A stretch of 52,827 bases of DNA. Origin: Candidatus Aenigmatarchaeota archaeon (GTDB lineage: Archaea; Aenigmatarchaeota; Aenigmatarchaeia; Aenigmatarchaeales; Aenigmatarchaeaceae). A program made the position numbers and the translations under genes. Below, in pieces: positions 9,179 through 50,938 of this stretch (positions are counted from its first letter, which is position 1; each line of letters starts with the position of its first letter). Location: contig JBDRJK010000013.1 in NCBI GenBank assembly GCA_043814985.1, positions 1-52,827 of the forward strand, given 5' to 3'. The notes under the pieces were generated by a model. That model had not been told where the DNA came from, did no database searches, and saw nothing but the letters and a program-made list of their open reading frames with translations.

Positions 9179-9205
9179 ATATTCTTGTTTTCTATTAATC
9201 ATTAA

Positions 9206-9217
9206 GCCTCCGTAGCT
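9206..9217 (+). repeat. tRNA 5'-end remnant (GCCTCCGTAGCT)
   Basis: 11/12 identical to the first 12 nt of the tRNA-Arg at 9999; preceded at TATA-like distance by TTTAAATA. Confidence 0.6.
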
Positions 9218-9270
9218 ACCACTAGAGGTAGTAAATTCGATTATTGTTTGTGTTCGAGTATAATTAATAG

Positions 9271-9990
9271 ATGAAACTTGAGATTCCTTCTAAAATCGAT
9301 GAAAATTTGGCAGAACTTCTCGGTATTATTGTTGGCGATGGTTATGTCAGGACAAAGGATCCTCGTTGGCTATCGATAGAGGTAAACGCGGAAGAAAAAA
9401 GTTATATAGAAAAGCATGTTATACCTCTGGTTTCCAATATTTTCAAGTGCAAACCTGTCGGCAGATTCTTCAATAGGAATGGCATTAATAACACATATGG
9501 CTTTTACATCTGCAGCAAGAGGCTTACTGATTTCTTGAATTACCTTGGTGTTGCCAAAAAGCACGACAAAATAAGAGTTCCTGAGGTTGTCATCAGGAAC
9601 AAGATGCTATATTCCAGATTTTTGAGAGGATATTTCGACACTGACGGATGCCTGTCATTTGAGAAGAAACATAAAGACATTTACTACTATCCAAGGCTTC
9701 TCTTGTCTTCAGTATCTAAGATGCTGATAATGGATGTGAAAGGAATGACAGATGCTCTGAATATTTGCGGAACAGTTTTCATAACATCACCGGGAAGGAA
9801 GACAAAGATGCCTCTTTACAGGCACTGCATCAGGGGGCCTGAGAAGCTTGAGAAATGGTCCAAAAGGATAGGGTTTTCCAATCCTAACAGCCGTACAAAA
9901 TACCTCATATGGAGGAAGTTGGGTCATTGTAAGACCAATACGAGCCTTGAGAAGAGAATTAGCATTTTAAATAATATTAACGACCTTTAA
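9271..9990 (+). CDS. Free-standing two-motif LAGLIDADG (DOD) homing endonuclease-like protein
   Basis: Motifs LAELLGIIVGDG and FLRGYFDTDG; no intein splicing motifs or host gene. Confidence 0.88.
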   Translation: MKLEIPSKIDENLAELLGIIVGDGYVRTKDPRWLSIEVNAEEKSYIEKHVIPLVSNIFKCKPVGRFFNRNGINNTYGFYICSKRLTDFLNYLGVAKKHDKIRVPEVVIRNKMLYSRFLRGYFDTDGCLSFEKKHKDIYYYPRLLLSSVSKMLIMDVKGMTDALNICGTVFITSPGRKTKMPLYRHCIRGPEKLEKWSKRIGFSNPNSRTKYLIWRKLGHCKTNTSLEKRISILNNINDL

Positions 9991-9998
9991 TTTAATAT

Positions 9999-10102
9999 GC
10001 CTCGGTAGCTCAGCTTGGATTAGAGCGACTGACGAAAGGTCGAACCTCCTATTCATCTGAGAAGAAAGCAGTAGGTCGCGCGTTCAAATCGCGTCCGGGG
10101 CA
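9999..10102 (+). tRNA. tRNA-Arg(CCT) with two introns (30/31: 10032-10044; 37/38: 10052-10066)
   Basis: Acceptor GCCTCGG/CCGGGGC; T-arm GCGCG-TTCAAAT-CGCGT. Removing both introns gives ACTGC-CT-CCT-AA-GCAGT. The first intron is a strict BHB (CGAC/GTCG); the second is relaxed (CTCC/GAAG). A20 in the D-loop fits Arg. Confidence 0.85.
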
Positions 10103-10103
10103 C

Positions 10104-10110
10104 TTTTTTT
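10104..10110 (+). terminator. Oligo-T terminator after tRNA-Arg
   Basis: T7 run directly after the tRNA 3' end. Confidence 0.55.
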
Positions 10111-10115
10111 ATCTT

Positions 10116-10152
10116 TAATGAAGTGTCGTGGGTTCAAATCCCATCGAGGGCA
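10116..10152 (+). pseudogene. Isolated tRNA 3' half
   Basis: TAA-TGAAG-TGTC-GTGGG-TTCAAAT-CCCAT-CGAGGGC-A: anticodon 3' strand, variable loop, T-arm and acceptor 3' strand, with no adjacent 5' half. Confidence 0.75.
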
Positions 10153-10186
10153 TAAATTTATTTAATTACATGGTGGTTATTCTATT

Positions 10187-10891
10187 ATGCCAACTCAAGA
10201 ACGCACAAAAACAGGCGTAAAAGGCATGGACGATATAATGGACGGAGGCCTTGTACCGAATGCCTTAACTCTTCTGACAGGAACAGCTGGTACAGGAAAG
10301 ACAACAATCTCCTCACAGTTCATCTATGAAGGAGCCAAGAAATACGGAGAGAACGGCGTCTATGTCACTTTCGAGGAGCCTGTCGAGAGCATCAAGAAAA
10401 GCTGCTTGAACTATGGTTGGGATTTTGAACCTCTGGAGAAAGAGGGCAAGGTCATATTTGTAAAATACGACCCATTCCACATCGAAGATATTTACGAACT
10501 GATAGAGACCAACATAAAGAAGATAAATGCCAAGAGGGTTGTCATTGATTCCATATCCGCTTTAGGTTTGTACGTCAAGGAGACACCTGAGATAAGGAGA
10601 ATGATTTTCAACATATCATTCCTGTTGAGAAGGCTGGAATGTTCGTCCATATTAATCTCTGAGATACTTCCAAACCAGTCAAGCCTGTCAAGGTTCGGTG
10701 TTGAGGAGTTTGTAACAGACGGTGTGATAGTTCTGTATTACAAGCAGGTGGGGTCGCAGTTCTCAAGAGCCATGACTGTCTGGAAAATGAGGGGTTCAAA
10801 GCACTCTTCTAGATTACACCCCTACAAGATAACGGACAAGGGCGTTGTTGTATATTCTAATGAGGAAGCCCTTATCAAATCCCAAAGTTAG
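10187..10891 (+). CDS. KaiC-like RecA-superfamily ATPase (single domain)
   Basis: KTGVKGMD, GTAGTGKTT, RVVIDSIS, KMRGSKHS motifs. Confidence 0.9.
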   Translation: MPTQERTKTGVKGMDDIMDGGLVPNALTLLTGTAGTGKTTISSQFIYEGAKKYGENGVYVTFEEPVESIKKSCLNYGWDFEPLEKEGKVIFVKYDPFHIEDIYELIETNIKKINAKRVVIDSISALGLYVKETPEIRRMIFNISFLLRRLECSSILISEILPNQSSLSRFGVEEFVTDGVIVLYYKQVGSQFSRAMTVWKMRGSKHSSRLHPYKITDKGVVVYSNEEALIKSQS

Positions 10892-10924
10892 TTTTATTTA
10901 ATAGGAAAAAACTAAATTTACTAT

Positions 10925-11881
10925 ATGCCTAAGAAAAGGGCCGAGAAGGACAAAAAGACTGCAGAAGTAAAAATCAAAAAAGTCAGGGTAGAAAATCAGC
11001 AAAGTGACCTTGAAAAGGCTCTAAAGAAAACAGCAATAAGGCTGTTCGGGAAAACAGCGGACAAGTACTCGGCAAATTTCATCAATGTCAAGCAATCACT
11101 GATAACATCTGGCACTAGGATGTTGTTCAGAACATACATATCTCTGATGTTGTTCATAACAGCAATCACTTTCTTGATAACATTCGTCTTCACACTGGCA
11201 TTCGTGCTTTCAATCGGACTGGGTATATTGTTTTCATTAATAGGAATCATAGTGATGCCGTCGTTTTTTGCATCAATAGTCTTCCTGTTGATATACGTCT
11301 ATCCGATATCAGTATCAGAGAGCAGGAAAAGGGACCTAGAGGCTAACCTGCCTTTTGCAATGACGCACATGTCAGCTGTTGCAGAATCAGGAGCTCCGCC
11401 ATTAACGATATTCAAGATACTTGCCCAGTTCAAGGAATATGGCGAGGTATCCAAAGAGGCTCAAAAAATAACTAGGAACGTTGAAGTGTTTGGTTTGGAC
11501 CAGTTAAGCGCTTTGAGGGACAGGTCCCTTAAGTCTCCGTCGCCGAGCTTCAGGAACATACTGCAGGGAATCCTTTCAACAATACAGACAGGAGGGAACC
11601 TAAGGACTTATCTGACAGAGGAATCCAAGAAGGCCATGTTCGAATACACCATGAGAAGGGAGAAATACAACCAGCTGCTGTCAACCTATGCTGACCTCTA
11701 TACTGCCCTGCTTGTGGCAGCGCCAATGATTTTTATTGTTGTGATATCCACGCTGAGCGTGATGGGAGGAAGCGTCTTCGGGATGAGTCTGGAGTTCACC
11801 ATGATACTTGGTCTGGGAATCCTGGCACTCCTGAACATGATGTTCCTTGTATTCATCCAGATAACACAGCCTAAAATGTGA
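10925..11881 (+). CDS. Type II secretion/T4P platform protein (TadC/ArlJ-like, T2SS F domain)
   Basis: LPFAMTHMSAVAESG, YGEVSKE, SPSPSF motifs with flanking TM helices. Confidence 0.88.
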   Translation: MPKKRAEKDKKTAEVKIKKVRVENQQSDLEKALKKTAIRLFGKTADKYSANFINVKQSLITSGTRMLFRTYISLMLFITAITFLITFVFTLAFVLSIGLGILFSLIGIIVMPSFFASIVFLLIYVYPISVSESRKRDLEANLPFAMTHMSAVAESGAPPLTIFKILAQFKEYGEVSKEAQKITRNVEVFGLDQLSALRDRSLKSPSPSFRNILQGILSTIQTGGNLRTYLTEESKKAMFEYTMRREKYNQLLSTYADLYTALLVAAPMIFIVVISTLSVMGGSVFGMSLEFTMILGLGILALLNMMFLVFIQITQPKM

Positions 11882-11885
11882 TCAA

Positions 11886-12692
11886 ATGAAAATGAAGATA
11901 GACATGGAAACAAAAATAACAATTGTTCTGGTAGTCTCAGGGCTCTCGCTTTTTGTAATAAATTTCCTGACCATATCCTATGACCTGATAAGCCTGATAT
12001 CGGTCAGCATTGTCATCACGGGGCCTGCTGTCTTTGAATACAAGAAATACAAGGACAACAAGGAGATAGAGGAGAGGTTCCCAGATTTTTTAAGAGATAT
12101 AACAGAGAACATCAAGACTGGCATGACCCTGACACAGGCCATCAAGTCAACAAAGAGAACAAATTACGGTGCCTTGACGCCGCATGTCAAAAAAATAATC
12201 ACGAAAATCGACTGGGCCATACCATTCGACCAGATTTTAATAGAATTCTCCAAGAAATCAACCCCCTTAATCCAGAAGACAGTGTCCACAATTCTTGAGA
12301 CTTACAGGGGAGGCGGCAACATAACGCAGGTTCTGGATGCTGCGAGCAAGACCATAAAGGAAATCAACAAGATAAGAACAGAGAGGTTCTCATCAATATA
12401 CAACCAGATGATAACTGGTTATGTCATCTTCTTCATATTCGTGGGCGTCCTGATAATCCTGAAGAACTACCTTGTCCCAAGCCTTTTCTCGTTCGGCGCG
12501 GGCTTCTCCATAAGCGGTGTTGAGAACATAGGAGAATTCTACAACATGATATTCCAATGGCTGATCATTCTGGAGGGTTTCTTCTCAGGTTTGGTTGTAG
12601 GCAAGATGGCTCAAGGAAGCATGATAGCTGGATTAAAGCACTCGCTGTTATTGGTGGTTGTTGGCTACGGGGCGTTTTTGCTGTTCATGTAA
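11886..12692 (+). CDS. Type II secretion/T4P platform protein (TadB/TadC-like)
   Basis: IEERFPDFLRDI..GMTL, YGALT, GFFSGLVVGKM..G motifs. Confidence 0.88.
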   Translation: MKMKIDMETKITIVLVVSGLSLFVINFLTISYDLISLISVSIVITGPAVFEYKKYKDNKEIEERFPDFLRDITENIKTGMTLTQAIKSTKRTNYGALTPHVKKIITKIDWAIPFDQILIEFSKKSTPLIQKTVSTILETYRGGGNITQVLDAASKTIKEINKIRTERFSSIYNQMITGYVIFFIFVGVLIILKNYLVPSLFSFGAGFSISGVENIGEFYNMIFQWLIILEGFFSGLVVGKMAQGSMIAGLKHSLLLVVVGYGAFLLFM

Positions 12693-12726
12693 AACTTTTA
12701 TTATAGCCTAAAATAACTTCTATATT

Positions 12727-13158
12727 ATGAGAGCTGTAACCCCGATACTTTCTCACAGCGCCCTTTTGCTTATTGGACTTATAGCAGTCAGCCTCATAAT
12801 AGTCTCAATATCAGCATCATTCTCCACAACAGAGAAGGACCTGATTAGAAGTGAATTAAACTACATTGCCGAGGCTGCAAAAGGCAAGATACTGGAGATT
12901 TACAGTGTTGCCAGTCAGACAACTGAGTACTCTAACTCAAGTTTCCAGTTGGGCCTGCCGCAGAAGATCGGGGAGAACAAGTACCTTCTCGCTTTGGATC
13001 AGGATAACCTGACTGTCAGCATAGCTTTCAAGAACGAGGAAATAGAAATTGTAAAGGCTCTTAACATTGATGCGGAGCTCAGCGGTGAAGCGTACTTGCC
13101 AGCTTCAATTTTAGCAGAGAAAATCGGGGGAAACATAACAATTAGTTTGGTTGGTTGA
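12727..13158 (+). CDS. Pilin-like protein
   Basis: MRA|VTPILS class III signal-like N-terminus with a hydrophobic helix. Confidence 0.65.
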   Translation: MRAVTPILSHSALLLIGLIAVSLIIVSISASFSTTEKDLIRSELNYIAEAAKGKILEIYSVASQTTEYSNSSFQLGLPQKIGENKYLLALDQDNLTVSIAFKNEEIEIVKALNIDAELSGEAYLPASILAEKIGGNITISLVG

Positions 13159-13872
13159 ATGGCACAAATAGATTTTGCAATTGCGTTTGTAGTTGTCTTC
13201 ACTATGATATCATATTCTGTTTTCATTGTTTCAGGCACTATCACGAAAGACTTCAACTATTTCAATCTGAAAGAAATAGAAAAGTCTCATGACTCACTGT
13301 CAAGGCAGCTGTTTGACACAATGGACAGCAAGAGCCTGATTTCAAACTTCAAGGAAGTACAGATTTCATTCGAGGAGATTGGCGGGTACAACCATACTGA
13401 GAATCTTAAAATATCAATCAAGCCGCTAGTGGAAAAAATACATGTCTACAACCAGACAATGGACGAGATAGCATCTGTAAACTCCACAGAAGGAAACTAC
13501 ACAAATGTTTCATTCAACATGGACTTTTCAACAAACCAGATAATCTATGTCAGTGTTTTTTATTCAGGTAGCAACACAGACGAGATAATATTCAACAATA
13601 ATGTAACACAGGACAATGTAACGGCAAACATAATTTCTGAAAAGGACGTTCCAGTACTTTCGCAGAACAGGTGCGATTACCTGAGAAGTCTGGGTTACGA
13701 TGCAGCAAGGAACAGCTTCGGTTTCACGCACAGGTTCAGGATAGACAACCACTGCGTCTATGGAGAGGTCCCACCGATTGCTGCAAACATAATAGTAAAA
13801 TCAGTTCCATTATTCGTTGAGAGAATAGACGAGAGCATCTATCCGGAGCAGGTAATTTTGAAGGTGTGGTAA
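13159..13872 (+). CDS. Minor pilin-like protein
   Basis: MA|QIDFAIAFVVVF N-terminus; lies within the pilus cluster. Confidence 0.6.
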   Translation: MAQIDFAIAFVVVFTMISYSVFIVSGTITKDFNYFNLKEIEKSHDSLSRQLFDTMDSKSLISNFKEVQISFEEIGGYNHTENLKISIKPLVEKIHVYNQTMDEIASVNSTEGNYTNVSFNMDFSTNQIIYVSVFYSGSNTDEIIFNNNVTQDNVTANIISEKDVPVLSQNRCDYLRSLGYDAARNSFGFTHRFRIDNHCVYGEVPPIAANIIVKSVPLFVERIDESIYPEQVILKVW

Positions 13873-14255
13873 TGAAAGCAACATTTCATACAATAGAGGC
13901 AATAATAGGGACACTGATACTTCTAGTAGGAGTGATGAACATCTATCCAATCCAAGATAACGAGGAAATTTATTTTTCAGACGAGGGCTTCGAATGCCTG
14001 AAGTATTTGGACCAAAGTGGACTTTTGAGGCATTATGTCTACAACAATCTTCTCAATGAGTTGAACAGCACTATCAGGTCTTGCCTGCCAGGAATAACTG
14101 ATTACGCATTCCAGATATGCTCTTCATTGCCTTGTACGGCAATCCTTCCGACAGACAGGTCAACCTTCCTCTCAAGTTATTTGATTGCCGGTATGAACAA
14201 GGGTGCAGCAAACTATGACCCGAGAATGGTCAATTTATGGGTGTGGTCAAAATGA
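13872..14255 (+). CDS. Minor pilin-like protein
   Basis: MKA|TFHTIEAIIG class III-like N-terminus. Confidence 0.65.
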   Translation: MKATFHTIEAIIGTLILLVGVMNIYPIQDNEEIYFSDEGFECLKYLDQSGLLRHYVYNNLLNELNSTIRSCLPGITDYAFQICSSLPCTAILPTDRSTFLSSYLIAGMNKGAANYDPRMVNLWVWSK

Positions 14256-14626
14256 AAGGACAAGTGTTCATGATAGTCTCGATTTTCATTCTGCTATTCC
14301 TATTCCTATTGAGAATCAACACCCAGACAATTGATGTGAGACCTGAGGACATGTTCCATGAGGACTTTTCAAATCTTAAGAACGAACTAATAAGAACAAT
14401 TGACATTTCATTGCTGAACCAGGAAAACCTTATGGGCAATCTGAACAGTTTCATCATATTCTCAACAGACATCTACAAGAACAAGGGATACACAGAGGAC
14501 GTGCAATACTCAATTTCAACGTCAGGAGATTCAACAACAGTCTATTTGAACATCTCCTTGTCGTCAGCCAACTCTTATCTGAAGGAGAGCCTAATAATAA
14601 ACAGAACTTTGTCGGTGTTCGCATGA
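14252..14626 (+). CDS. Minor pilin-like protein
   Basis: MKG|QVFMIVSIFILLF class III signal. Confidence 0.7.
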   Translation: MKGQVFMIVSIFILLFLFLLRINTQTIDVRPEDMFHEDFSNLKNELIRTIDISLLNQENLMGNLNSFIIFSTDIYKNKGYTEDVQYSISTSGDSTTVYLNISLSSANSYLKESLIINRTLSVFA

Positions 14627-15111
14627 AAGGCGTAAGCGTAATAATAGCAAGTGCGATCGTGATTGCAATATCGATCACTGCAGCATACTTGGTTCTAAAC
14701 TTGGGAAGCCCTGGGCCAGACAGATTAAAGGAGATGATGCTGATGCAGGAGGCCAAGGACACGCTCAAGAGCATTGACAATGCTGTCAGGTCTGTCAGCG
14801 GGGAAGGTCAGGGCTCAACAAGAAGCCCAAGACTGACAGTAACAGGAGGCTACTATACAGTGGATGCTGATAACGAGACTGTTGTTTTTGTTATGGACAG
14901 CTTTGCCCAGATAATAGGTATAGATGTTTCCAAGACAGAGGACAACATAAACATTAGAGGCGAATCAGGAAGGATCTATCTTAACCTGACTTACGTTGAT
15001 TTTAACATAACAGGCGGAACAGAATTTGGAAAGGGGACATACACCCTAATAGTAAGAAATGAAGGATATGATGCAATAAACCAAAAACAAATTGTAAGCA
15101 TCTCTGTTTAA
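14623..15111 (+). CDS. Pilin-like protein
   Basis: MKG|VSVIIASAIVIAI class III signal. Confidence 0.75.
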   Translation: MKGVSVIIASAIVIAISITAAYLVLNLGSPGPDRLKEMMLMQEAKDTLKSIDNAVRSVSGEGQGSTRSPRLTVTGGYYTVDADNETVVFVMDSFAQIIGIDVSKTEDNINIRGESGRIYLNLTYVDFNITGGTEFGKGTYTLIVRNEGYDAINQKQIVSISV

Positions 15112-15157
15112 GACAAAACTTTATATAACAGCTTCAATAAATTAAAATCTGAGTGAT

Positions 15158-15577
15158 ATGAAAGGTGTATCTCCATTAATCGCATCGGTTCTGCTAATAG
15201 CAATAACAATGACGCTAGCTGCTATTTTAGCTAGTTTTGTCTCAAACTACACACAGCAGCAGTTGTCTTCTTTGCCAGCATGCGTTGGAGGTACAATAAC
15301 TTTCGCAACTGCAGACTATCCTGACTTGCAGGGTGGGGAGATTATTGCAATAATTGATATTGGCAGCATTGACCTTTCAGACTTCAGAATTGAATCTATT
15401 AATTCAACTGAGCACGTAAATATTATAACTGCTACTGGAACCACTTCAATTTCAGCAGGCAGTTCAGGAACTATTAGGGCAGATTTCAGTGGTTTGGGCG
15501 TACTCACAGGTGACAAGACAAGAATCGTAGCAGGCAATTGCCCGGACGTCAAGACAGGATGGGTAAATCTGAAATAG
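15158..15577 (+). CDS. Archaeal type IV pilin (probable major pilin)
   Basis: MKG|VSPLIASVLLIAIT canonical archaeal pilin N-terminus; has its own TATA-like TTTATATA upstream. Confidence 0.85.
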   Translation: MKGVSPLIASVLLIAITMTLAAILASFVSNYTQQQLSSLPACVGGTITFATADYPDLQGGEIIAIIDIGSIDLSDFRIESINSTEHVNIITATGTTSISAGSSGTIRADFSGLGVLTGDKTRIVAGNCPDVKTGWVNLK

Positions 15578-15603
15578 TTCTTAAATAAACAAGGGGTGAA
15601 AAT

Positions 15604-15771
15604 ATGGCTTACAGTCACAAAAACAGCAGGGGTGTAACATACTGGTTGCACAGCAAGGGAAAACTATTTTTCTTCTCGAAGAAACCAGAAGAATCTATTG
15701 ACCTACCTGAACATCTTGAGGTCTTTGAAAACGCGAGAACAGGTCTGCCAATGGTAAGGAAGAAACAGTAA
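15604..15771 (+). CDS. Small conserved hypothetical protein (55 aa)
   Basis: Manual translation MAYSHKNSRGVTYWLHSKGKLFFFSKKPEESIDLPEHLEVFENARTGLPMVRKKQ; GGGGTGA RBS upstream. Confidence 0.75.
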   Translation: MAYSHKNSRGVTYWLHSKGKLFFFSKKPEESIDLPEHLEVFENARTGLPMVRKKQ

Positions 15772-15809
15772 CCCTTTATTAATTTCTTTCAAGTATTATT
15801 AATGGTATT

Positions 15810-16316
15810 ATGAGAAAGAACAGGGGGGAGAAGAAACGGTCAATGAGACCCCAAATATCATTATCAAGCTTATTGATAGTTCTGATATTGTTTTCTGTAT
15901 TATCCTTGGCTGTCATGAACTTTCTTGACTCTTCTGAATATTACACAGCAGATGTTTTAGAAGTTGAAGGAAGCGTGGTCACAATTGGGCACGGCTGTAT
16001 GGCCATAGTTGCCGAGACATCTCCTGAGAGAGCATATTCCATTGAATTGGGAATCAAGGGAGTCATAGAGCAAAGGCCAAACACGCATGACATATTCTCT
16101 GAGACCATGAAGAGCTTCAACATTACTTTAGACCACGTCACAATAGACAATCACAAGGACGGCATCTACTATGCGAACCTATTGCTTAAGTCGAACGAGA
16201 AGATTCTGAAGCTTGATGTGAAGCCATCAGACGGCATTGCCATGGCTTTGAGAAGCAATGCAACAATATACATCAACAAGACAATGCTGCAAGAAGTTGG
16301 AGTAAACATCTGCTGA
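15810..16316 (+). CDS. Bifunctional nuclease (DUF151) domain protein with N-terminal TM anchor
   Basis: RPNTHD, GIYYANL, DVKPSDGIAMALR motifs. Confidence 0.85.
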   Translation: MRKNRGEKKRSMRPQISLSSLLIVLILFSVLSLAVMNFLDSSEYYTADVLEVEGSVVTIGHGCMAIVAETSPERAYSIELGIKGVIEQRPNTHDIFSETMKSFNITLDHVTIDNHKDGIYYANLLLKSNEKILKLDVKPSDGIAMALRSNATIYINKTMLQEVGVNIC

Positions 16317-16688
16317 TTAGAAACAAATATCGCAATCCTTTAGTTCTGGAAAGGCTTTCTTGTGAATACTGCAAAGAATCTTGCTTTTTCTCACCTTCTT
16401 GCAGATATTACAGAAAGGAACTATAGTGTTTGAAGAATCCAGTTCGCCTGAAGCTATCCTGCTTGCAAACTCCTCTATCTGCTCATTGATTTCCTTGTCC
16501 CTTTCCAGGATTTTTATCTTGGATCCTCTCAAATTCCTCGAGTATTGTGATATTGCGGACTGGGTCAGACCTAATTTGGAGGCTGCATCCTGTTGGGTAA
16601 ACTTATACTTCTCAATAAGTTCCTTTGCTATTAGTGCCCTTAGGGTTGGCAATAATACTTGTGCAACAGTTTCGCAATATGGCTTCAT
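16317..16688 (-). CDS. HTH transcriptional regulator (COG2522-like) with Cys cluster
   Basis: PYCE..LPTLRALIAKEL, TQQDAASKLGLTQSAISQY HTH; C-terminal CxxC..C..H..CxxC. Confidence 0.85.
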   Translation of the reverse strand: MKPYCETVAQVLLPTLRALIAKELIEKYKFTQQDAASKLGLTQSAISQYSRNLRGSKIKILERDKEINEQIEEFASRIASGELDSSNTIVPFCNICKKVRKSKILCSIHKKAFPELKDCDICF

Positions 16689-16867
16689 TATAACACTGTT
16701 ATATTATAGCATTAATAAAGTTTAAATCCTTACCCACAGTAAAAATCAAGGAAAATTGGTTTTACGACTGTCTAGTGGCTATTTAAATACTTGTTTGTTC
16801 AATAATTTATTAACTGGAAAGTGGCAAAGCTTAAATATGAAATTGAGATTATAATTAGAGTGGTAAA

Positions 16868-17668: not shown

Positions 17669-17709
17669 TTTCACACGCTTCTATTATTTGAGTTAGATGT
17701 TTTACGCAA

Positions 17710-17982
17710 TTACTGAATTAATTCAGTCTCAACAATTATATGTATCAATTCTTCGCCTGACTTTAGATAGTCTGTATAAGAAAAACCAAGATTTGAAGGT
17801 GTTCTATAAATTTCTATTTTTTGTCCTGTTTCTAAACTAATTTTTTCATTTTTTTCAATACTAATTTTTTCACCATCTTGAGTTTTTGCCAGATATCTAG
17901 GCTGCATTCCAATACCACGAGGATTAAATTTTAATCCTTCCTCTCCAGTAATAATACATTTTAATATTGTTGGTTTTTTCAT
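17710..17982 (-). CDS. Hypothetical protein
   Basis: 90-aa AT-rich ORF with TATA-like element upstream. Confidence 0.55.
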   Translation of the reverse strand: MKKPTILKCIITGEEGLKFNPRGIGMQPRYLAKTQDGEKISIEKNEKISLETGQKIEIYRTPSNLGFSYTDYLKSGEELIHIIVETELIQ

Positions 17983-18012
17983 GAAGTATAATTAGAAAAT
18001 AAGCTTTAAATT

Positions 18013-19872: not shown

Positions 19873-19935
19873 AAGACCACTATAATTTATATGAATTATT
19901 AATTTATTAATTCACTTCCATCATAAAATTTAATT

Positions 19936-20229
19936 TTATTTTGCCCTGTATTTTCTCATGCTAATTTCTTCGGCTTTCTCCTCTTCTAATATTTTATATA
20001 TCTCTTCCTGCTTTTTGGAAAAATCCGCGTCATTATTAACACCACAGAAGTCTATTACGATATCATGTACGTTCCTTCTAACCTTTCTCGTGCTTATATT
20101 TACGCCGGTCATGCTTTCCAAAGAGTTGATAATCCTTTCTATTCTAGTTTCAGATGTTATTGTAGTTCTATATACATCATTGCCAGTTTTTTCATGTAAC
20201 ATTCGCGCTTCTTCTATCATAATAAACAT
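19936..20229 (-). CDS. Hypothetical protein
   Basis: 97-aa ORF, no recognisable motif. Confidence 0.5.
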   Translation of the reverse strand: MFIMIEEARMLHEKTGNDVYRTTITSETRIERIINSLESMTGVNISTRKVRRNVHDIVIDFCGVNNDADFSKKQEEIYKILEEEKAEEISMRKYRAK

Positions 20230-20277
20230 AAATTATGAAAAGCATTTAAAGAAATCGATTCTATTATTAATTCATAT

Positions 20278-20389
20278 AGCCCCGTCGTCTAGTGGTCAAG
20301 GATAACGGGCTTTGGTCATGCGACTAAAGCACTGAGCTTTTAGCTGTGAAAGAAACCCGTTGACGTAGGTTCGAATCCTACCGGGGCTA
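20278..20389 (+). tRNA. tRNA-Gln(TTG) with 39-nt canonical 37/38 intron (20316-20354)
   Basis: AGCCCCG/CGGGGCT acceptor; ACGGG-CT-TTG-G|A-CCCGT; BHB central helix CTTT/AAAG; T-loop TTCGAAT. Confidence 0.93.
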
Positions 20390-20436
20390 CTATTAATATT
20401 TAAACTTTGATTGATAATACAAAAAGAGTGATAATA

Positions 20437-20859
20437 ATGGGTCTATTTAGCGGTAGAGAGCTGAAAAAGAGAAAGAAAAAGTACAGGTGGAAGAAGACCA
20501 AGTACAAGGTCAGAACACTTAAGCTCAAGGAGAAGAGAGATCCTTTAGAGGGAGCTCCGATGGCCAAGGGCATTGTCATTGCTAAGAGAGCCATTGAGCA
20601 GAAGCAGCCCCATTCAGGATTAATTAAAGTTGTAAGAGTCCAATTGTTGAAGAACAAGAAGGAGATAACAGCCTTTGTCCCCAAGTCAGGCGGAATAGGC
20701 TTCATAAACGAGCACGACGAAGTAATAGTCGATGGACTTGGTGGATCTCAAGGAGGACCAATAGGTTCTCAGCACGGTATGAGGTGGAAGGTAATCAAGG
20801 TCAACAAGTCTGCTTTATCAGAATTACTGAAAGGCAAGAAAAAGAAAGAGGGTAAATAA
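20437..20859 (+). CDS. rps12: 30S ribosomal protein uS12
   Basis: DPLEGAPMAKGIV, KQPHSG, VRVQL, EHDEV. Confidence 0.96.
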   Translation: MGLFSGRELKKRKKKYRWKKTKYKVRTLKLKEKRDPLEGAPMAKGIVIAKRAIEQKQPHSGLIKVVRVQLLKNKKEITAFVPKSGGIGFINEHDEVIVDGLGGSQGGPIGSQHGMRWKVIKVNKSALSELLKGKKKKEGK

Positions 20860-21461
20860 TGTCTAAATTAAAACTTTTCGATAAATGGGACACAGAAGCC
20901 GTAAGTGTTGAAGATCCCGGCTTGAAGGACTACATAAATCTGAAGCCAATAATAATTCCAAGGTCATCTGGCAAGTATTCTGGAAAACAATTCCACAAAT
21001 CCAACATGCATATTGTTGAGAGACTGATGAACCATCTCTTTGTTGCAGGACATAGAGGCAAGAAGCACAGAATCTCAAGCGGAAGTAATGTTGGAAAAAC
21101 ATTCAGTGTGATGGACATACTCATTAAGACCCTTCAGAATCTGGAGAAGAAGACAAATAAAAACCCCGTCGAGGTTCTGGTCAGGGCTGTTGAGAATGCT
21201 GCATTGAGGGAAGAAGTCACATCCTTCCAGGTCGGTGGCATAATAGTCAGAAAGGCAGTCATAACTTCACCACAGAGGAGAATTGACTTGGCCTTAAGAT
21301 TAATATCACAAGGCTCCTACCAGAAGGCTTCCAAGAGCTCCAAGAAAATGAGCCAGTGCCTGGCCGAAGAGCTTCTCGCAGCCTACAATTACGACCCACA
21401 GAGCTCGCACGCCATAAGGGAAAAGGAAAGAATAGAGAGAGAAGCTGGCGGCGCTAGATAA
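20859..21461 (+). CDS. rps7: 30S ribosomal protein uS7
   Basis: KLFDKWD, NPVEVLVRAVEN, SPQRRIDLAL. Confidence 0.97.
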   Translation: MSKLKLFDKWDTEAVSVEDPGLKDYINLKPIIIPRSSGKYSGKQFHKSNMHIVERLMNHLFVAGHRGKKHRISSGSNVGKTFSVMDILIKTLQNLEKKTNKNPVEVLVRAVENAALREEVTSFQVGGIIVRKAVITSPQRRIDLALRLISQGSYQKASKSSKKMSQCLAEELLAAYNYDPQSSHAIREKERIEREAGGAR

Positions 21462-21777
21462 AATTACCTTTGGACAATTTTTCCTTGATGATTTTCTCGT
21501 CCTTCTTGATAATTCTCTCTTCCTTCTGAACGAACTTCTGTATTTTCGGTTCCTCTTTCTTGAAAATAAATTCTGATATCTCGGCTATTGCTGTGAAGAC
21601 AGTTGCTATCACAATCACTGTCGTGAGTATTACCATGTTGAACTCAACACCGGTCAAATACATGGCGCTCATGTCCTCTATGACACCGAAAGCTATAAGG
21701 AATATGAAGAAAGAGATGAATCTGACAACCCTTTTCTTGTGCTTGTGTCTTCTATGGTGAATTTTCTCCGTCTGCAT
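21454..21777 (-). CDS. Hypothetical 2-TM membrane protein
   Basis: Two hydrophobic helices, His/Lys-rich N-terminus; start MQTEK chosen. Confidence 0.7.
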   Translation of the reverse strand: MQTEKIHHRRHKHKKRVVRFISFFIFLIAFGVIEDMSAMYLTGVEFNMVILTTVIVIATVFTAIAEISEFIFKKEEPKIQKFVQKEERIIKKDEKIIKEKLSKGNFI

Positions 21778-21865
21778 AATATATATTAATTGAAGAGGCT
21801 GTATTTTAAGCTTAATAAAAAAGCTTAAATAATGTAATTTCTTATTATTCAAATCACGTGGTTAA

Positions 21866-24049
21866 ATGGTCAAAGAAGATTACTCAGAACAAATTCAAAA
21901 TTTAATGAACATACCTGATAATATCAGGAACATTGGTATTGTCAGTCATATCCACCATGGCAAGACAACACTGACAGACGTGCTTGCAGCCAAAGCAGGA
22001 TTAATAGCAGGACAATTGGTTGGGGAAAGGATGCTCACGTGGATTGATTCTCAAGAAAGGGAGAGGGTAATGACAATCTACGGTGCAACAGTCACCATGC
22101 CTCACGAGTACGAGGGCAAGAAATATCTTATAAACCTTCTTGACACGCCAGGTCACGTTGACTTTGGCTCTGATGTCACGCAGGCCATGAGAGCAGTGGA
22201 TGGAGCAGTTGTCATGGCATGCGCTATCGAGGGTGTAATGCCGCAGACAGAAAATGTTCTGAGACAGGCCTTGAAAGAAAGAGTAAAACCAATCCTATTC
22301 ATAAACAAGGTTGACAGGGCAATAAGGGAGTTGAAATTAACACCTGAGCAATTGCAAAAGAGACTGGCTAAGATAGTCATAGATGTCAACAGATTCATAC
22401 AAAGACGTGTCGAGCCCCAGTTCAGGAACGAGTGGGTTATGAAGGTCGAGGACGGCTCTGTTGGCTTTGGTTCTGCATTGAAAAAGTGGGCCATTTCAGT
22501 TCCCTTCATGGCAAAAACTGGCGTCACCTTCAAGGACATAATTGATTTGTGTTCCCAGGAAAGGGACGAGGAGCTATCAGAAAAGGCCCCAATGAACGTA
22601 GTTGTTTTGGACATGGTCATAAAGCATTTGCCTTCGCCAAAAGAAGCTCAGAAATACAGGATTAAAAAGATATGGACAGGCGATGTTGAGTCTGAAACAG
22701 GAAAGCAACTAGTGAACTGCAATTCTGATGGCAAGCTGGCAGCCGTGATAACAAAGGTCGTGTACGATCCTCATGCTGGCATGATTTCAACTGTTAGAAT
22801 ATTCTCCGGAAAAATAACAAGGGGCCAGAATATATATTTCGTTGATAGTGATAGAACCACAAAACTACAGCAAGTTACAACTTTCATTGGCTTGAAAAGA
22901 ATCCCTGTTGAATATGCTCCAGCAGGGAATGTTGTTGGTCTGGTCGGTTTGTCAGAAGCAATTGTTGGAGAGACCATAACTGATGCTGGCAATGTCATAG
23001 ACAAGTTCCAGGCAATAAAGCACATCTTCGAGCCTGTTGTTACGAAATCAATTGAACCAAAATCCCCGCAGGATTTGCCAAAGCTGATAGACATACTAAA
23101 GACACTGGGAAGGGAGGACACGACTCTAAGGGTCAAGGTGAATCCTGAGACAGGTGAGACTCTTGTATCTGGTTTAGGGGAGCTTCACCTTGATGCAAAG
23201 GTAGAGAGAAAGATAAGGGAAAAGGGCATAGAGATAGTGGTATCACCGCCGATTGTTGTTTACAGGGAAAGCGTTTTTTCAAAATCCCCTATTGTAGAGG
23301 GCAAGTCGCCGAACAAGCACAACAAGTTCTCCATCTCAGTCGAGCCTGTTCCCGTTAATATTTACAAGGCAATGATAGAAGGTGACATAAAAGACGGGGT
23401 GATAAAGGGCAAAAATGCTGAAGTCAGAAAGACGCTTGTTGAAATGGGAATGACAAAGCAGGACTCAAAGGATGTTTTGATGATTCACAATCACTGCATG
23501 CTTGTTGATTCTACAAAGGGTATACAGTACTTGAACGAGGCAATGGAGAATGTGAAGAGCGCCTTTATTGATGTTACTGAGACAGGGCCTCTGGCAAAGG
23601 AGCCCTGCGCTGCCATGATAGTGAGGCTTCATGATGCAGAGCTGCATGAGGACGCTGTTCATAGGGGTCCAGCACAGATAGTGCCTGCAATCCGTTCCCC
23701 CATTAACACGGGAATGATAAAGGCCGGTGTCAGTTTTCTTGAGCCCAGGCAGATACTGAGAATAGACACTCCTGTGGAGTACATAGGGAATGTTGTTGCT
23801 GAGACCGGCAACAGAAGGGGTGAAATAATAAACGTCGAGCAGGAAGAGTTCACGGCTATTGTGACTGCAAAGGTTCCTGTGGCAGAGATGTTCGGTTTTG
23901 AGGGAGCGATAAAGTCAGCAACAGGTGGAAAGGGATTCCAGTCCCTTATAGACGTTGTTTTTGAGAAGATACCCAATGAATTGAGGGAAAAGGTTGCATT
24001 ACAAATAAGGGAAAGAAAGGGACTGCCCAAAGATATACCCAAAGCCTGA
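21866..24049 (+). CDS. fusA: Elongation factor EF-2
   Basis: HHGKTT, DTPGHVDF, INKVDR, GLGELHL, diphthamide loop HEDAVHRG. Confidence 0.98.
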   Translation: MVKEDYSEQIQNLMNIPDNIRNIGIVSHIHHGKTTLTDVLAAKAGLIAGQLVGERMLTWIDSQERERVMTIYGATVTMPHEYEGKKYLINLLDTPGHVDFGSDVTQAMRAVDGAVVMACAIEGVMPQTENVLRQALKERVKPILFINKVDRAIRELKLTPEQLQKRLAKIVIDVNRFIQRRVEPQFRNEWVMKVEDGSVGFGSALKKWAISVPFMAKTGVTFKDIIDLCSQERDEELSEKAPMNVVVLDMVIKHLPSPKEAQKYRIKKIWTGDVESETGKQLVNCNSDGKLAAVITKVVYDPHAGMISTVRIFSGKITRGQNIYFVDSDRTTKLQQVTTFIGLKRIPVEYAPAGNVVGLVGLSEAIVGETITDAGNVIDKFQAIKHIFEPVVTKSIEPKSPQDLPKLIDILKTLGREDTTLRVKVNPETGETLVSGLGELHLDAKVERKIREKGIEIVVSPPIVVYRESVFSKSPIVEGKSPNKHNKFSISVEPVPVNIYKAMIEGDIKDGVIKGKNAEVRKTLVEMGMTKQDSKDVLMIHNHCMLVDSTKGIQYLNEAMENVKSAFIDVTETGPLAKEPCAAMIVRLHDAELHEDAVHRGPAQIVPAIRSPINTGMIKAGVSFLEPRQILRIDTPVEYIGNVVAETGNRRGEIINVEQEEFTAIVTAKVPVAEMFGFEGAIKSATGGKGFQSLIDVVFEKIPNELREKVALQIRERKGLPKDIPKA

Positions 24050-24100
24050 AATAAAGATTTAAATAGATTGCTAATGTAATAAGCTAAAAGGTGAATTATA

Positions 24101-25369
24101 ATGGCAAATAAACCACATTTGAACTTAGTAACTGTAGGTCACGTAGACCACGGTAAATCAACCTTAGTGGGTAGAATGTTATTTGATAGCGGTGCTCTAA
24201 AGCCGGAAGAACTGAGAAAATACAAAGAACTGGCAACAGAATACAAGAAAGAAACATGGGAATTCGCCTTTGCCATGGACAGGTTAAAGGAAGAAAGGCA
24301 GAGAGGAGTTACCATTGACTTAATGCATAAGAGATTTGATACTAAAAAATATTACTTTACGGTTATAGACGCACCAGGTCACAGGGACTTTGTTAAGAAC
24401 ATGATAACTGGAGCATCCCAGGCAGACGCAGCCCTTTTGGTCTGTTCTGCAAAGGATGGAGTCCAGGAACAGACAAGGGAGCACGTGTTCTTGATAAAAG
24501 TTTTGGGAGTGAGTCAAATAATTGTTGCAATAAACAAGATGGACGCAGTTGAATACGGCGAAGCCAAGTACAAAGAAACAGTGGAAAGCTTGTCAAAGCT
24601 TTTGAAGACAGTTGGATATGACACTAGCAAAATACTATTTGTTCCAACGTCTGGTTGGAAGGGCGACAATGTTTTCAACAAGTCAGAAAACATGGTTTGG
24701 TACAAGGGACCAACAATATTTGAAGGATTAGACACTTTATCTCTTCCAGAGAAGCCAATTGACAAACCTTTGAGACTTCCAGTTCAGGATGTTTACACAA
24801 TTACTGGAATCGGAACAGTTCCTGTTGGAAGAATTGAGACAGGAGTCCTAAAGGCAGGAGAAACAGTTATTTTCGAGCCATCGGGCGTATCTGGAGAAGT
24901 AAAGACAATCGAGATGCACCATGAGCAGGTAACAAAGGCAGAACCCGGAGACAATGTCGGATTCTCAGTGAGAGGTGTGAACAAGGCAGACATCAAAAGA
25001 GGTGACGTTGTAGGCCTAGCCTCAAAGCCACCAACAGTTGCAAAGGACTTCACAGCACAGATAATAGTTCTGCAACACCCGAATGTCATAACAAAGGGTT
25101 ATACACCAGTTTTCCATTGCCACACAGCGCAGGTTGCATGCAAGATAGTCGAGATTGTGAAGAAAATCGATCCAAAGACAGGCGCAACCATACAGGAGAA
25201 TCCAGACTTCATAAAGACTGGAGACGCAGCAATAATAAAGTGTGTTCCAAACAAGCCGCTTGTCATAGAAGCAACCAAGGACATACCACAATTGGCAAGG
25301 TTCGCTATCAGAGACATGGGACAAACAGTTGCAGCAGGAATATGCTTGGAAGTAACACCCGCTAAGTAA
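24101..25369 (+). CDS. tuf: Elongation factor EF-1alpha
   Basis: [31 protein letters not shown]. Confidence 0.99.
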
Positions 25370-25459
25370 AACTGATTTGAATTTTTAATTTAACTTTTTC
25401 TTTTATTTTGACTCAGTTTGTAATAGATATTTAAATACTTCTGCAAATAGATTAGAGAT

Positions 25460-25780
25460 ATGCAGAAGGCTAGGATAAAATTAATGAGCAGGGACCCGAG
25501 GAAACTTGAGGACGTTTGCGCAGAGCTGAAAATGATAACTGACAAGTTCGGGGTAGCCATGCACGGGCCGATTCCTTTGCCGACTAAGAAACTCAAGGTC
25601 ACTACAATGAAGACTCCCTGCGGTGACGGTACAGGTCACGGCAACACGACATGGGACAGATGGGAGATGAGGGTTCACAAGAGGGTCATTGACATTTCTT
25701 CTGACGAGAGGACCTTAAGGCAGATAATGAGAGTTACAATACCGGACGGCGTGTCCATTTCTATTCAACTGAAAGATTAA
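25460..25780 (+). CDS. rps10: 30S ribosomal protein uS10
   Basis: GPIPLPTK, TPCGDG, WEMRVHKR. Confidence 0.97.
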   Translation: MQKARIKLMSRDPRKLEDVCAELKMITDKFGVAMHGPIPLPTKKLKVTTMKTPCGDGTGHGNTTWDRWEMRVHKRVIDISSDERTLRQIMRVTIPDGVSISIQLKD

Positions 25781-26019
25781 CGCAATCTTATCAGGCTGTT
25801 TTTGTATTTAACAAACCACTTTATGAAAATACCGAATACCATTCCTAGAAACAATGTGAAGAGCATCAAGAATATAATGTTCATGAACTGTACACTCTTG
25901 TTATAGACTCCTGTTAGAAATGGTAATATTAAGAACACAATAGAGAAAAGGACCAATATGATGCAAATGTTAAACAGGAACTCTAGGAACTTTGTATCGA
26001 TTTCATACTTTGATGGCAT
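25777..26019 (-). CDS. Small hypothetical 2-TM membrane protein
   Basis: 80-aa ORF with two hydrophobic helices. Confidence 0.6.
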   Translation of the reverse strand: MPSKYEIDTKFLEFLFNICIILVLFSIVFLILPFLTGVYNKSVQFMNIIFLMLFTLFLGMVFGIFIKWFVKYKNSLIRLR

Positions 26020-26116
26020 ATAATTACTTAAATTTCAAGATATAAAAATTCCTTGAAATAATGGTAGTGCTACATAAAGGAAAATATAATAAGAAAAATA
26101 ACATAGTTCTTCATAT

Positions 26117-26815
26117 ATGAGCATAATAGAGAGAAATAGAAGGAATGTTATTTCTAGATGGAAAAAACAACATGAAAAGGAATTAGAACGGATAAAGTCT
26201 AAAAAGAATGTCAATTTCTTAAAAGCAAGAATCTGTGGTTTTTTAGTTGGTGATGGCAGTGTATATATAAGAAAAGAAAAACAATCCGGAAAGGTTCATC
26301 ATGAAATAAAGTTCTTTCCTGACCATGAATCATTGATAAAGCCTTTTATTTATGCTTTCAAAGAAGCTTACAATAAGACACCTAAGGTAATTAAAAAGAA
26401 TAATTATTATGTTATAAGGATTAATTCGAAAATAGTTATTCTTAATTTATTATCATTATGCTCTTTTAGTTCGGAAGGATGGACAATACCATCCTTTAAG
26501 GAAGTTGAATGTAAAAAAGAATGGTTAAGAGCAATGTTTGATTCAGACTCTTATGTTGGGAATGAATATGTTAGATTGAAGACAATTAACAAAAAAGGCT
26601 TGGAACATGTTAAAAAATTACTTCTTGAGTTTAAAATAAAGACATCTAGAATATATGTCTACAAGCCTAGAAATGAGAAATGGAAAACCAACTATATGCT
26701 GGATATAAGGGATAAGAAATCTCTGAAAATCTTCCTTAAAGATATAGGATTTAATCATAAGCTTAAAAAAGAAAAGTTATTAAGTTTAATTAAAAAATAT
26801 GATATGCCGAGATAG
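26117..26815 (+). CDS. Free-standing two-motif LAGLIDADG homing endonuclease-like protein
   Basis: ARICGFLVGDG and WLRAMFDSDS motifs, C-terminal IGF..K; visibly AT-rich compared with neighbours. Confidence 0.85.
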   Translation: MSIIERNRRNVISRWKKQHEKELERIKSKKNVNFLKARICGFLVGDGSVYIRKEKQSGKVHHEIKFFPDHESLIKPFIYAFKEAYNKTPKVIKKNNYYVIRINSKIVILNLLSLCSFSSEGWTIPSFKEVECKKEWLRAMFDSDSYVGNEYVRLKTINKKGLEHVKKLLLEFKIKTSRIYVYKPRNEKWKTNYMLDIRDKKSLKIFLKDIGFNHKLKKEKLLSLIKKYDMPR

Positions 26816-26827
26816 CAATGCCGAGAT
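26806..26827 (+). repeat. Tandem duplication of tRNA-Ser 5' end (GCCGAGAT x2)
   Basis: GCCGAGATAGC at 26806 (contains the LAGLIDADG stop codon) and GCCGAGATCGC at 26820. Confidence 0.75.
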
Positions 26828-26924
26828 CGCATAACCTGGTAGTGCGCTAGATTTCGTAAAAGAAAGGCGAACCTGGAAAGCTAGTTTCCGCAAGGATATG
26901 GGGGTTCAAATCCCTCTCTCGGCG
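26820..26924 (+). tRNA. tRNA-Ser(GGA) with 21-nt non-canonical 30/31 intron (26851-26871)
   Basis: GCCGAGA/TCTCGGC acceptor, G73, long variable arm TCC-GCAA-GGA. Spliced anticodon arm CTAGC-CT-GGA-AA-GCTAG. BHB central helix CGCT/GGCG. Confidence 0.92.
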
Positions 26925-50937: not shown

Positions 50938-50938
50938 C

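Follow-up and report, generated by a model that had tools for sequence, protein, structure and literature searches.

Candidate tRNA-homing cassettes formed by free-standing LAGLIDADG genes and intron-bearing tRNAs in an Aenigmatarchaeota genome

Two nuclease-tRNA loci in the window

The window, meaning the whole stretch of 52,827 nucleotides (nt) that was analysed, is contig JBDRJK010000013.1 of GenBank assembly GCA_043814985.1 from Candidatus Aenigmatarchaeota archaeon, and is referred to as contig C13 of its own genome, G000 (808 kb, 91% complete, archaeal ribosomal protein genes present). Two of its tRNA genes, tRNA-Arg(CCT) and tRNA-Ser(GGA), each directly follow a free-standing gene for a two-motif LAGLIDADG protein, termed nuclease 1 and nuclease 2, and it is these two nuclease-tRNA pairs that are described here. 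The gene order around rpsJ is common to the window and to the named Aenigmatarchaeota records L011, L014, and L048, with 67-77% DNA identity. ARAGORN found no tRNA when run without its intron option and misnamed both nuclease-side tRNAs when run with it; tRNAs and introns were read using a purpose-written parser that recognizes bulge-helix-bulge (BHB) motifs, and doubtful genes were re-read by eye. When the two pre-tRNAs were folded by minimum energy, the BHB appeared in the Arg precursor and not in the Ser precursor, and pairing rules were used instead.

Nuclease 1 (239 amino acids, Arg family, predicted catalytic residues D23 and D125) is encoded at 9271-9990 and nuclease 2 (232 amino acids, Ser family, predicted catalytic residues D46 and D144) at 26117-26815; these and all other features of the two loci lie on the forward strand. 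Both open reading frames (ORFs) are intact and end 8 nt (Arg) and 4 nt (Ser) before a co-oriented tRNA, as an earlier note on this DNA had reported. At the Arg locus the ancestral tRNA-Arg(CCT) is split. Its positions 1-12 remain at 9206-9217, where they equal positions 1-12 of the tRNA in the sister genome G002 and are unlike the resident copy at 9999, and its last 28 nt (T arm and acceptor strand) lie at 10125-10152, where 27 of 28 nt equal the 3' end of the G002 tRNA and run on into the conserved flank. The stranded 5' piece stands behind the old promoter, a TATA box at 9174-9181, 32 nt before 9206, which has the identical sequence and place before the intact tRNA of the empty G002 allele. 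Between the stranded ends are inserted the nuclease gene and a complete, different tRNA-Arg(CCT) allele (9999-10102) with two BHB introns, whose acceptor, anticodon, and T stems are unlike those of the ancestral allele. The first intron (10032-10044, 13 nt, at 30/31) has 4/4 central-helix pairs and the outer pair and is absent from 14/14 nuclease-free orthologues, and the second (10052-10066, 15 nt, at 37/38) has 3/4 central-helix pairs and is absent from G002. A contig from run X5, which belongs to a separate study, joins 9217 to 10125 via an intron-less tRNA core and represents an independent empty Arg allele; contigs from run X1, which may itself be the source of the window, span 8700-10086 and 25310-26894 with no differences. 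A split or trans-spliced tRNA was considered for 10125-10152 and ruled out, as this piece matches the ancestral Arg allele.

The tRNA-Ser(GGA) gene occupies 26820-26924; its exons differ by one base from those of the empty allele L055, and it carries a 21-nt BHB intron at 30/31 (26851-26871; four central-helix pairs, one of them G-U) that is absent from L055 and G002. Upstream of nuclease 2, which has a G+C content of 28% compared with 39-48% in the flanking genes, lie an old TATA box (26040-26048) that aligns with the promoter of L055 and a putative eroded 5' half of tRNA-Ser (26062-26070, positions 17a-25; p 0.098 when taken alone), and positions 1-25 are carried at an equal distance by the cassettes L255, L256, and L258. 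An 8-nt copy of the tRNA-Ser 5' end is found in the last codons of the ORF (26806-26813), a hallmark of the Ser family that is kept as a scar in the nuclease-free loci L135 and L140. The tRNA-like remnants that the earlier note had reported at both loci were recovered, at 9206-9217, 10125-10152, 26062-26070, and 26806-26813. The same note had held that an intron at 30/31 sets the two nuclease-side tRNAs apart in the window; this stands, since the other two tRNAs, Gln(TTG) at 20278-20389 and Ser(TGA) at 47769-47923, have 37/38 introns only, although the 37/38 intron of the Arg tRNA had been overlooked. The 37/38 intron of tRNA-Ser(TGA) is 70 nt long and has an equal length in G000, G001, G002, and G008.

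TATA-like boxes at promoter distance inside the 3' ends of both ORFs, also noted previously, were located at 9965-9973 and 26785-26794, candidate replacement promoters for tRNA-Arg and tRNA-Ser respectively. Their distance from +1 (about -33 to -30) is as in most other G000 tRNAs, and the Ser box is weak on its own in AT-rich DNA. Across the class, a TATA-like box was present at -36 to -23 in 42/90 nuclease-abutting tRNAs, against 139/1980 control windows in the same ORFs and 222/365 other tRNAs; the enrichment in ORF ends argues that embedded promoters are real as a class, yet they are missing in half of the cases. A sigma-70 promoter scan, a model ill-suited to archaea, gave nothing above shuffled sequences. 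The suggestion that the embedded promoter makes the nuclease gene hard to delete was contradicted: both window loci still have the old promoter 5' of the nuclease gene, so that a deletion can bring back the former arrangement while leaving the intron in place, and 7/8 intron-bearing Ser(GGA) alleles of the family are nuclease-free, two alleles keeping a scar of the nuclease 3' end.

The LAGLIDADG proteins and their tRNA partners

Both proteins match Pfam LAGLIDADG_3 (PF14528) above the cut-off (E 1.7e-10 for nuclease 1 and 1.1e-16 for nuclease 2) and do not align with each other (best E 0.65). D23 and D125 of nuclease 1 are both invariant over 29 aligned rows; for nuclease 2, over 21 aligned rows, D46 is invariant and residue 144 is always D or E. 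The structure model of nuclease 1 (predicted local distance difference test score, pLDDT, 94.6) had as top folds the TliVMA intein endonuclease (Z 20.4; root-mean-square deviation, rmsd, 1.9 over 177 residues), I-Tsp061I (19.3), and PI-PfuI (19.2), and that of nuclease 2 (pLDDT 92.1) had PI-PfuI (Z 21.5; rmsd 2.9 over 195 residues), I-DmoI (18.5), and I-Tsp061I (18.5). As modelled, both proteins are monomeric with a pseudo-dimeric two-motif LAGLIDADG fold; no extra domain such as a zinc finger was present in the Pfam scan or the structure models, and Ser-family members share one additional, conserved helix at the N terminus. Contig scans with a single protein returned no locus for nuclease 2 and two distant loci for nuclease 1, and alignments were required to find the relatives described below.

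The proteins might instead be domesticated and non-cutting, acting as WhiA-like regulators of tRNA transcription or as maturase-like splicing helpers. WhiA-like regulators have a degenerate active site, a C-terminal helix-turn-helix domain, and vertical conservation. This alternative could draw on the extra helix of the Ser family, on the WhiA fold, which lies near both models (Z 17.1) compared with Z 18.4-21.5 for the group of PI-PfuI, I-DmoI, I-Tsp061I, and TliVMA, and on dN/dS ratios (nonsynonymous to synonymous substitution) of 0.08-0.31 among the seven closest Ser-family genes (19/21 pairs, the remaining pairs being saturated), which indicate purifying selection on that family. Fold alone does not part LAGLIDADG enzymes from WhiA; intact acids and patchy presence do. 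Unlike WhiA, both window proteins keep their catalytic acids, the WhiA_N profile reaches only E 0.07, below the cut-off, and the genes are absent from sister genomes, the Ser-family gene being found in 4/371 genomes of the phylum, G000 included, and absent from the other 367. Frameshifted nuclease copies occur at L282, L284, and L166, and the protein is not needed for splicing because identical introns exist without it (L135). The vertical conservation that the earlier note had named, for non-cleaving WhiA-like proteins, as speaking against homing was not seen, and a domesticated role is regarded as very unlikely.

The Ser-family set comprised 33 loci from metagenomes, together with L001 and three further genomes; four members end inside the gene. 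A tRNA-Ser lies directly downstream in 32/33 loci with downstream DNA, the exception (L370) being the most distant member, and none of 29 distinct neighbouring genes (three duplicates removed) is intron-less. An intron at 29/30 or 30/31 was read in 20/20 clear Ser(GGA) neighbours over a protein identity span of 40-73% (three re-read by eye; L266 left out as ambiguous), and five TGA or CGA neighbours have a 37/38 intron only. Among Ser(GGA) genes without a nuclease, 3/32 from a pattern scan and 7/17 at the rpsJ locus carry a 29/30 or 30/31 intron. A stranded tRNA-Ser 5' half located 5' of the ORF ends at positions 25-29 in 11/27 rows (shuffle test) and sits 166-178 nt before the first motif, and 9 nt survive in the window at an equal distance; because the half ends there, the footprint of the family stops just before the intron site. 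A wider rule that the stranded piece ends at the intron was tried and is unsupported outside the Ser family (21/109 loci significant). Introns at 8/9 and duplications of 7-8 nt are frequent in the family. The nuclease-free locus L135 has a two-intron allele that is 99% identical over 136 nt, ORF tail included, to that of the nuclease-bearing locus L259, while the flanks are 67-75% identical; such identity in diverged flanks shows allele transfer and later loss of the nuclease, and L140 has an ORF-tail scar like that of L135. In the protein tree of the family, the eight 30/31 members are grouped (99/96), and 11/25 branches are unresolved.

Among Arg-family loci with downstream DNA, the four nearest to nuclease 1 (43-50% identity) adjoin tRNA-Arg(CCT) genes, all of them intron-bearing, at 30/31, at 23/24 plus other positions, or at 37/38 plus 60/61. 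The next clade adjoins Arg(TCG), and remoter clades each adjoin their own tRNA type. The intron position 30/31 emphasized by the earlier note is strict in the Ser family only; neighbours of Arg-family genes have introns at 20/21, 23/24, 30/31, 35/36, or 37/38, or none. For 25 nuclease-abutting Arg(TCG/ACG) genes, an intron between positions 20 and 36 is present in 7/8 with the modal sequence at positions 21-26 and in 1/17 with an altered one, and all six intron-less genes are altered. In a Woesearchaeota-order sample (two unpublished genomes excluded; some rows are not tRNAs, and nuclease status was checked only at E 1e-60), the modal strand was present in 35/99 uninterrupted pattern matches counted by eye. 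The Arg(TCG/ACG) pattern fits resistance by intron or by stem substitution as read from these alignments, with lineage differences as an alternative. A nuclease clade resembling the Arg family (L313, L314, L315, L320, L323, L327, L335, and L338) adjoins intron-less tRNAs that parse as Leu with an AAG anticodon, and the neighbours at L307 and L328 were read as Arg(ACG). An A at position 34 (A34) is uncommon in archaeal tRNAs.

Sister genomes and intron associations

The sister genome G002 (84-88% DNA identity) has neither the nuclease nor the 30/31 intron at either window locus, and it is likewise empty at Ser(GCT) and Ile(GAT). The relatives L055 and L013 (84-92% DNA identity), which were not treated as independent of G002, have neither at Ser(GGA) and Ser(GCT). 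These empty alleles support the joint gain of nuclease and intron that the earlier note had proposed. A mirror case is provided by Thr(GGT) of G002, which has a nuclease, a foreign allele with a 35/36 intron, and the old 3' end stranded. Among 35 tRNAs shared by G000 and G002, nuclease presence differs at seven, and in 6/7 of these a new non-canonical intron is on the nuclease side, compared with a difference in non-canonical intron at 2/28 of the others (p 2e-4, run on 2/26); the sister differences at Gly(CCC) and Phe(GAA) involve no nuclease. At the rpsJ locus, tRNA-Ser(GGA) is present in 18/20 matching genomes, with the 30/31 intron in 8 and the nuclease in G000 only. At the Arg locus, the tRNA is present in 15/18 genomes, the nuclease and the 30/31 intron occur in G000 only, and 11/14 of the others are intron-less.

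Two alternatives bear on how such inserts arose. The nuclease target could be the promoter and 5' junction of the tRNA (about -15 to +12), destroyed by insertion of the gene itself, with the 30/31 intron hitchhiking in the conversion tract. The left junctions at tRNA positions 8, 10, and 12 in Ser(GCT), initiator Met, and Arg(CCT) would suit such a target, as would the 8/9 introns and short duplications of the Ser family and the gain of a nuclease with no new intron at Pro(GGG). The tRNA 5' end is, however, rebuilt intact downstream, the upstream DNA is poorly conserved between hosts, the stranded Ser half reaches positions 25-29, and the 29/30-30/31 intron is retained throughout the diverged Ser(GGA) loci, and this reading is held to be quite improbable. 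The inserts could also be remnants of integrase-driven insertion of a plasmid or virus into the tRNA, with the LAGLIDADG gene as cargo, which is the model given for a similar arrangement in Caldiarchaeum (PMC3293823, available in part), where a 5' fragment, an ORF, and a tRNA with a new intron are so explained; the duplicated tRNA ends do flank the insert as at attL and attR. Unlike tRNA-integrating elements with a pNOB8/SSV-type integrase, however, the inserts are <1 kb and contain only the nuclease ORF and the tRNA copy, with no integrase gene, 32 loci of the Ser family repeat this minimal layout, and no viral relatives were found in the viral scans, which leaves very little room for this origin. 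At L220 (G002:C19, about 1830-2500, minus strand), a nuclease gene interrupts the initiator tRNA-Met 10 nt from its start, and the downstream copy lacks positions 1-4; either the nuclease lies in an intron near 4/5 (weak BHB) that is removed by splicing, or the tRNA-Met gene is broken.

Profile searches of G000 recovered eight LAGLIDADG ORFs, a number that may be low, as one between gatD and gatE was missed. Five of the eight lie within 100 nt of a tRNA, compared with 22/589 other ORFs of at least 150 amino acids (p 7e-6). Besides the window loci, these pairs are at G000:C5:6565-7328 with Ser(GCT), which has an 8-nt stranded 5' end and two introns; at C15:25607-26386 with Ile(GAT), where the nuclease is divergent; and at C15:37916-38752 with Pro(GGG), where the ORF overlaps the tRNA and the embedded TATA box is absent. 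A 30/31 intron is present in 4/5 of the LAGLIDADG-side tRNAs (Arg-CCT, Ser-GGA, Ser-GCT, and Ile-GAT; not Pro-GGG) and in 1/33 of the remaining tRNAs (Leu-TAA, by eye; p 3e-4). The introns of Ser(GGA) and Ser(GCT) are near-identical despite different nucleases. No uninterrupted 24-nt Ser(GGA) target was found in G000 within 5 mismatches, and the splicing endonuclease gene is present. Other free-standing LAGLIDADG genes, at G000:C11:36473-37708, C12:21256-21888, and C14:83812-84930, adjoin protein genes (Nre-like, rpl1-like, and topA-like by sequence), so that tRNAs are one target class among several.

Several further tRNAs of G000 stand apart from these pairs. The tRNA-Leu(TAA) at G000:C15:41516-41690 (minus strand) has three introns (21/22, 30/31 by eye, and 37/38), also present in G002, and no nuclease. 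The exons of tRNA-Gly(CCC) at G000:C1:15164-15249 are unlike those of G002, with a 29/30 intron instead of a 37/38 intron and no nuclease, which by comparison of the two sequences is an allele replacement with no visible agent. At G000:C19:104480-105155, a small Cys-rich ORF and then a repeat of the tRNA 3' end come after tRNA-Leu(GAG), an arrangement that resembles an integration scar.

For a broader comparison, seven genomes of the family (G000, G001, G002, G004, G008, G010, and G012) were annotated for tRNA clusters. A total of 256 tRNAs were kept; L160, four genes with a poor parse, and all genes with <300 nt of upstream sequence were dropped; eight genes were reclassified and four added by eye, and calls at 36/37-39/40 were counted as canonical. 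The association that the earlier note had asked other genomes to display was present: a non-canonical intron was found in 15/23 tRNAs with a nuclease directly upstream and in 41/223 without a nuclease (Fisher 5e-6; within-genome permutation 5e-5), and in 4/10 with a nuclease in another orientation. Any intron was present in 21/23 nuclease-upstream tRNAs and in 111/223 without a nuclease. In the dropped locus L160 (610-1357; G012:C2), a whole LAGLIDADG ORF is located in a ~680-nt intron at 22/23 of tRNA-Lys(CTT), with a full BHB whose inner helix has 10 bp; this homing gene, encoded by a tRNA intron, ties the free-standing form to classical intron homing. At L146 (1823-2587, minus strand; G015), an ORF of ~210-250 amino acids lies between rpsJ and tRNA-Ser(GGA), divergent from the tRNA, and gave no LAGLIDADG profile match.

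Three other features of the window were recorded. Just 3' of tRNA-Ser(GGA), 26962-27468 encodes a small protein of the membrane that matches the Pycsar effector domain (PF18967, E 8.5e-12); it has no adjoining cyclase and is also found in the sister locus, after one extra gene. The stretch at 49700-52460, after the ribosomal cluster, is AT-rich and contains short ORFs (49700-50194, 50888-51181, and 51120-51809) with no Pfam match above the cut-off, and is possibly a small inserted element. A Cys-rich ORF of >1100 amino acids at 1-3380 (minus strand), with a signal-like start and running beyond the window, likely encodes a surface protein, to judge from its sequence.

A homing model and its relation to known systems

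These cassettes are a real and recurrent class of mobile element. Their layout consists of a stranded 5' tRNA piece, a LAGLIDADG gene whose last codons often include a candidate new promoter for the tRNA, and a complete, probably resistant tRNA. Based on the comparisons above, each nuclease family is faithful to one tRNA type across DPANN, and intron-bearing alleles moved between diverged genomes, the nuclease being lost later; a foreign allele, stranded ends, and a 99% identical allele in 67-75% identical flanks may be footprints of biased inheritance by gene conversion. The preferred reading, to which a probability of roughly 0.7 is assigned and in which cleavage is predicted from sequence, is that the loci are tRNA-homing cassettes in which an intron, or else changes in the stems, renders the carried tRNA resistant. 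Like free-standing homing endonuclease genes, the nuclease genes are optional, lie outside introns and inteins, and have empty alleles in relatives; the retained catalytic acids, the purifying selection seen in the Ser family, and the rarity of the Ser-family gene in the phylum also favour this reading. The nuclease would cut a sensitive allele, one with no interruption, in its DNA around positions 21-38 (for the Ser enzyme, about 26-31). The left break end would pair with the stranded 5' piece or be end-joined, the right end would pair with the 3' exon, and repair would copy the nuclease and the intron jointly. Resistance would be provided by a BHB intron in the recognition site and, in some Arg-family members, by stem substitutions. 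The host splicing endonuclease would take the intron out of the RNA, so that the tRNA still works, and the nuclease gene would later decay or be deleted while the intron stays.

A number of observations weigh against the homing model. The window Arg piece stops at position 12 and not at the intron, and a stranded 5' piece is significant in only 21/109 tandem loci. No intron is present in six Arg(TCG) genes that adjoin nuclease genes with intact motifs, Pro(GGG) in G000 gained a nuclease and no intron, and 8/23 nuclease-abutting tRNAs in the seven genomes have a canonical intron only or none. The nuclease is absent from 7/8 intron-bearing Ser(GGA) alleles in the family. No vector was found, as the viral scans gave no Ser-family relative and only five weak fragments (25-42%) for the Arg family. 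The seven-genome p values are too strong because kin share alleles, and the last four of those genomes (G004, G008, G010, and G012) were picked as nuclease-rich. The same association would moreover be expected if nucleases merely survive beside already resistant alleles. Under that alternative, the nucleases cut tRNA genes, introns arise and spread by other means such as break repair or copying between tRNAs, and a nuclease persists only beside a resistant allele and adds little to intron spread. It would account for the 41/60 tRNAs with a non-canonical intron that have no nuclease within 100 nt and for the nuclease-free sister differences at Gly(CCC) and Phe(GAA), and the near-identical introns of the two Ser tRNAs in G000 hint at copying between tRNAs. 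At the Arg locus, however, a whole foreign allele came with the nuclease inside the old tRNA, as also at Thr(GGT) in G002, and two nuclease-free intron alleles bear nuclease scars, one of them (L135) otherwise matching a nuclease-bearing cassette in diverged flanks. Survival beside resistant alleles is therefore considered unlikely.

A broader proposal is advanced tentatively, with somewhat less than even confidence: a DPANN class of tRNA-homing cassettes, with about one nuclease family per tRNA type, would be a main engine of gain and lateral spread of non-canonical BHB introns. Introns would originate at cut sites as alleles that confer resistance, move together with the nuclease, and outlast it, and a single cycle would include both the intron-encoded form (L160) and the free-standing form as stages. 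The homing model offers a testable route for the spread of non-canonical archaeal tRNA introns. The window supplies a named enzyme, a named substrate pair (the empty and filled sister alleles), and a predicted cut region, which makes for a simple cleavage assay. If the model is true, collaborative and WHO-like homing would be extended to archaeal chromosomes, frequent allele exchange among DPANN cells would be implied, and the existence of many compact meganucleases with predictable tRNA targets would be indicated.

In the portions of the literature that were accessible, a 2014 review terms the mechanism of archaeal tRNA intron transposition unknown (PMC4090602), archaeal group I introns bearing LAGLIDADG genes are described as all in rRNA (PMC6125680), and a 2026 Asgard preprint tests three routes of intron gain and finds none of them general, with homing never mentioned in the text available (10.64898/2026.10.13.758758). 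A full-text literature search, whose scope left out most subscription papers and supplements (e.g. Table S12 of the 2026 preprint), returned no publication that describes free-standing LAGLIDADG genes beside tRNAs of archaea. The window proteins share the fold of I-DmoI, I-Tsp061I, and PI-PfuI (Z 16.5-21.5, rmsd 2.2-3.4) and two catalytic acids. The genes of those enzymes sit within an rRNA intron or an intein (PDB titles agree), unlike the nuclease genes of the window, which sit outside the intron.

The four systems compared below are taken as described in the accessible parts of their sources. In Caldiarchaeum tRNA-Thr(GGU), a 5' tRNA fragment, a 271-codon ORF, and a full tRNA with a new 24/25 intron are polymorphic in the population (PMC3293823). 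By description the layout is as here; the ORF is termed a putative recombinase, the event is put down to plasmid integration, and 'homing' and 'LAGLIDADG' are absent from the part of the text available. SegB of phage T4 is a free-standing homing endonuclease in a tRNA region that recognizes tRNA DNA and spreads with flanking tRNA genes (PMC2330249); it is a GIY-YIG enzyme of a phage, directed at a T-arm motif of many tRNAs and linked to no intron, whereas here there is one family per tRNA type.

In collaborative homing, F-CphI of cyanophage S-PM2 accompanies an ORF-less group I intron in psbA, and the proposal is that the intron prevents self-cleavage and is itself mobilized by the nuclease (PMC6083498). 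The window loci resemble this system in that a free-standing nuclease adjoins an intron-bearing conserved gene and both are absent from the empty allele. They differ in their cellular archaeal chromosome, in a LAGLIDADG rather than an Endo VII type nuclease, in tRNA targets, and in protein-spliced BHB introns of 13-42 nt; the self-splicing group I intron of a phage that defines F-CphI has its counterpart in the 13- and 21-nt BHB introns of the window. Here, moreover, part of the target is duplicated and stranded, immunity apparently also arises via stem substitution, and cleavage is a prediction. In the WHO elements at FBA1 of Torulaspora and Lachancea, the fragments start near the cut site, which, as inferred, is occupied by an intron in one lineage (PMC7282813). 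As in those elements, a LAGLIDADG gene lies outside the expressed target, a resistant replacement end is carried, and a stranded fragment would serve as homology arm. In WHO elements the 3' end of a protein gene is replaced, the hosts are diploid yeasts, and a zinc finger is present; here the element replaces the 5' half or the whole of a tRNA, brings a candidate promoter, has neither a zinc finger nor an FBA1 target, and would use an intron as its usual means of resistance. By this analogy, the mechanics of the element appear closer to those of the yeast WHO elements than to those of a simple neighbour gene.

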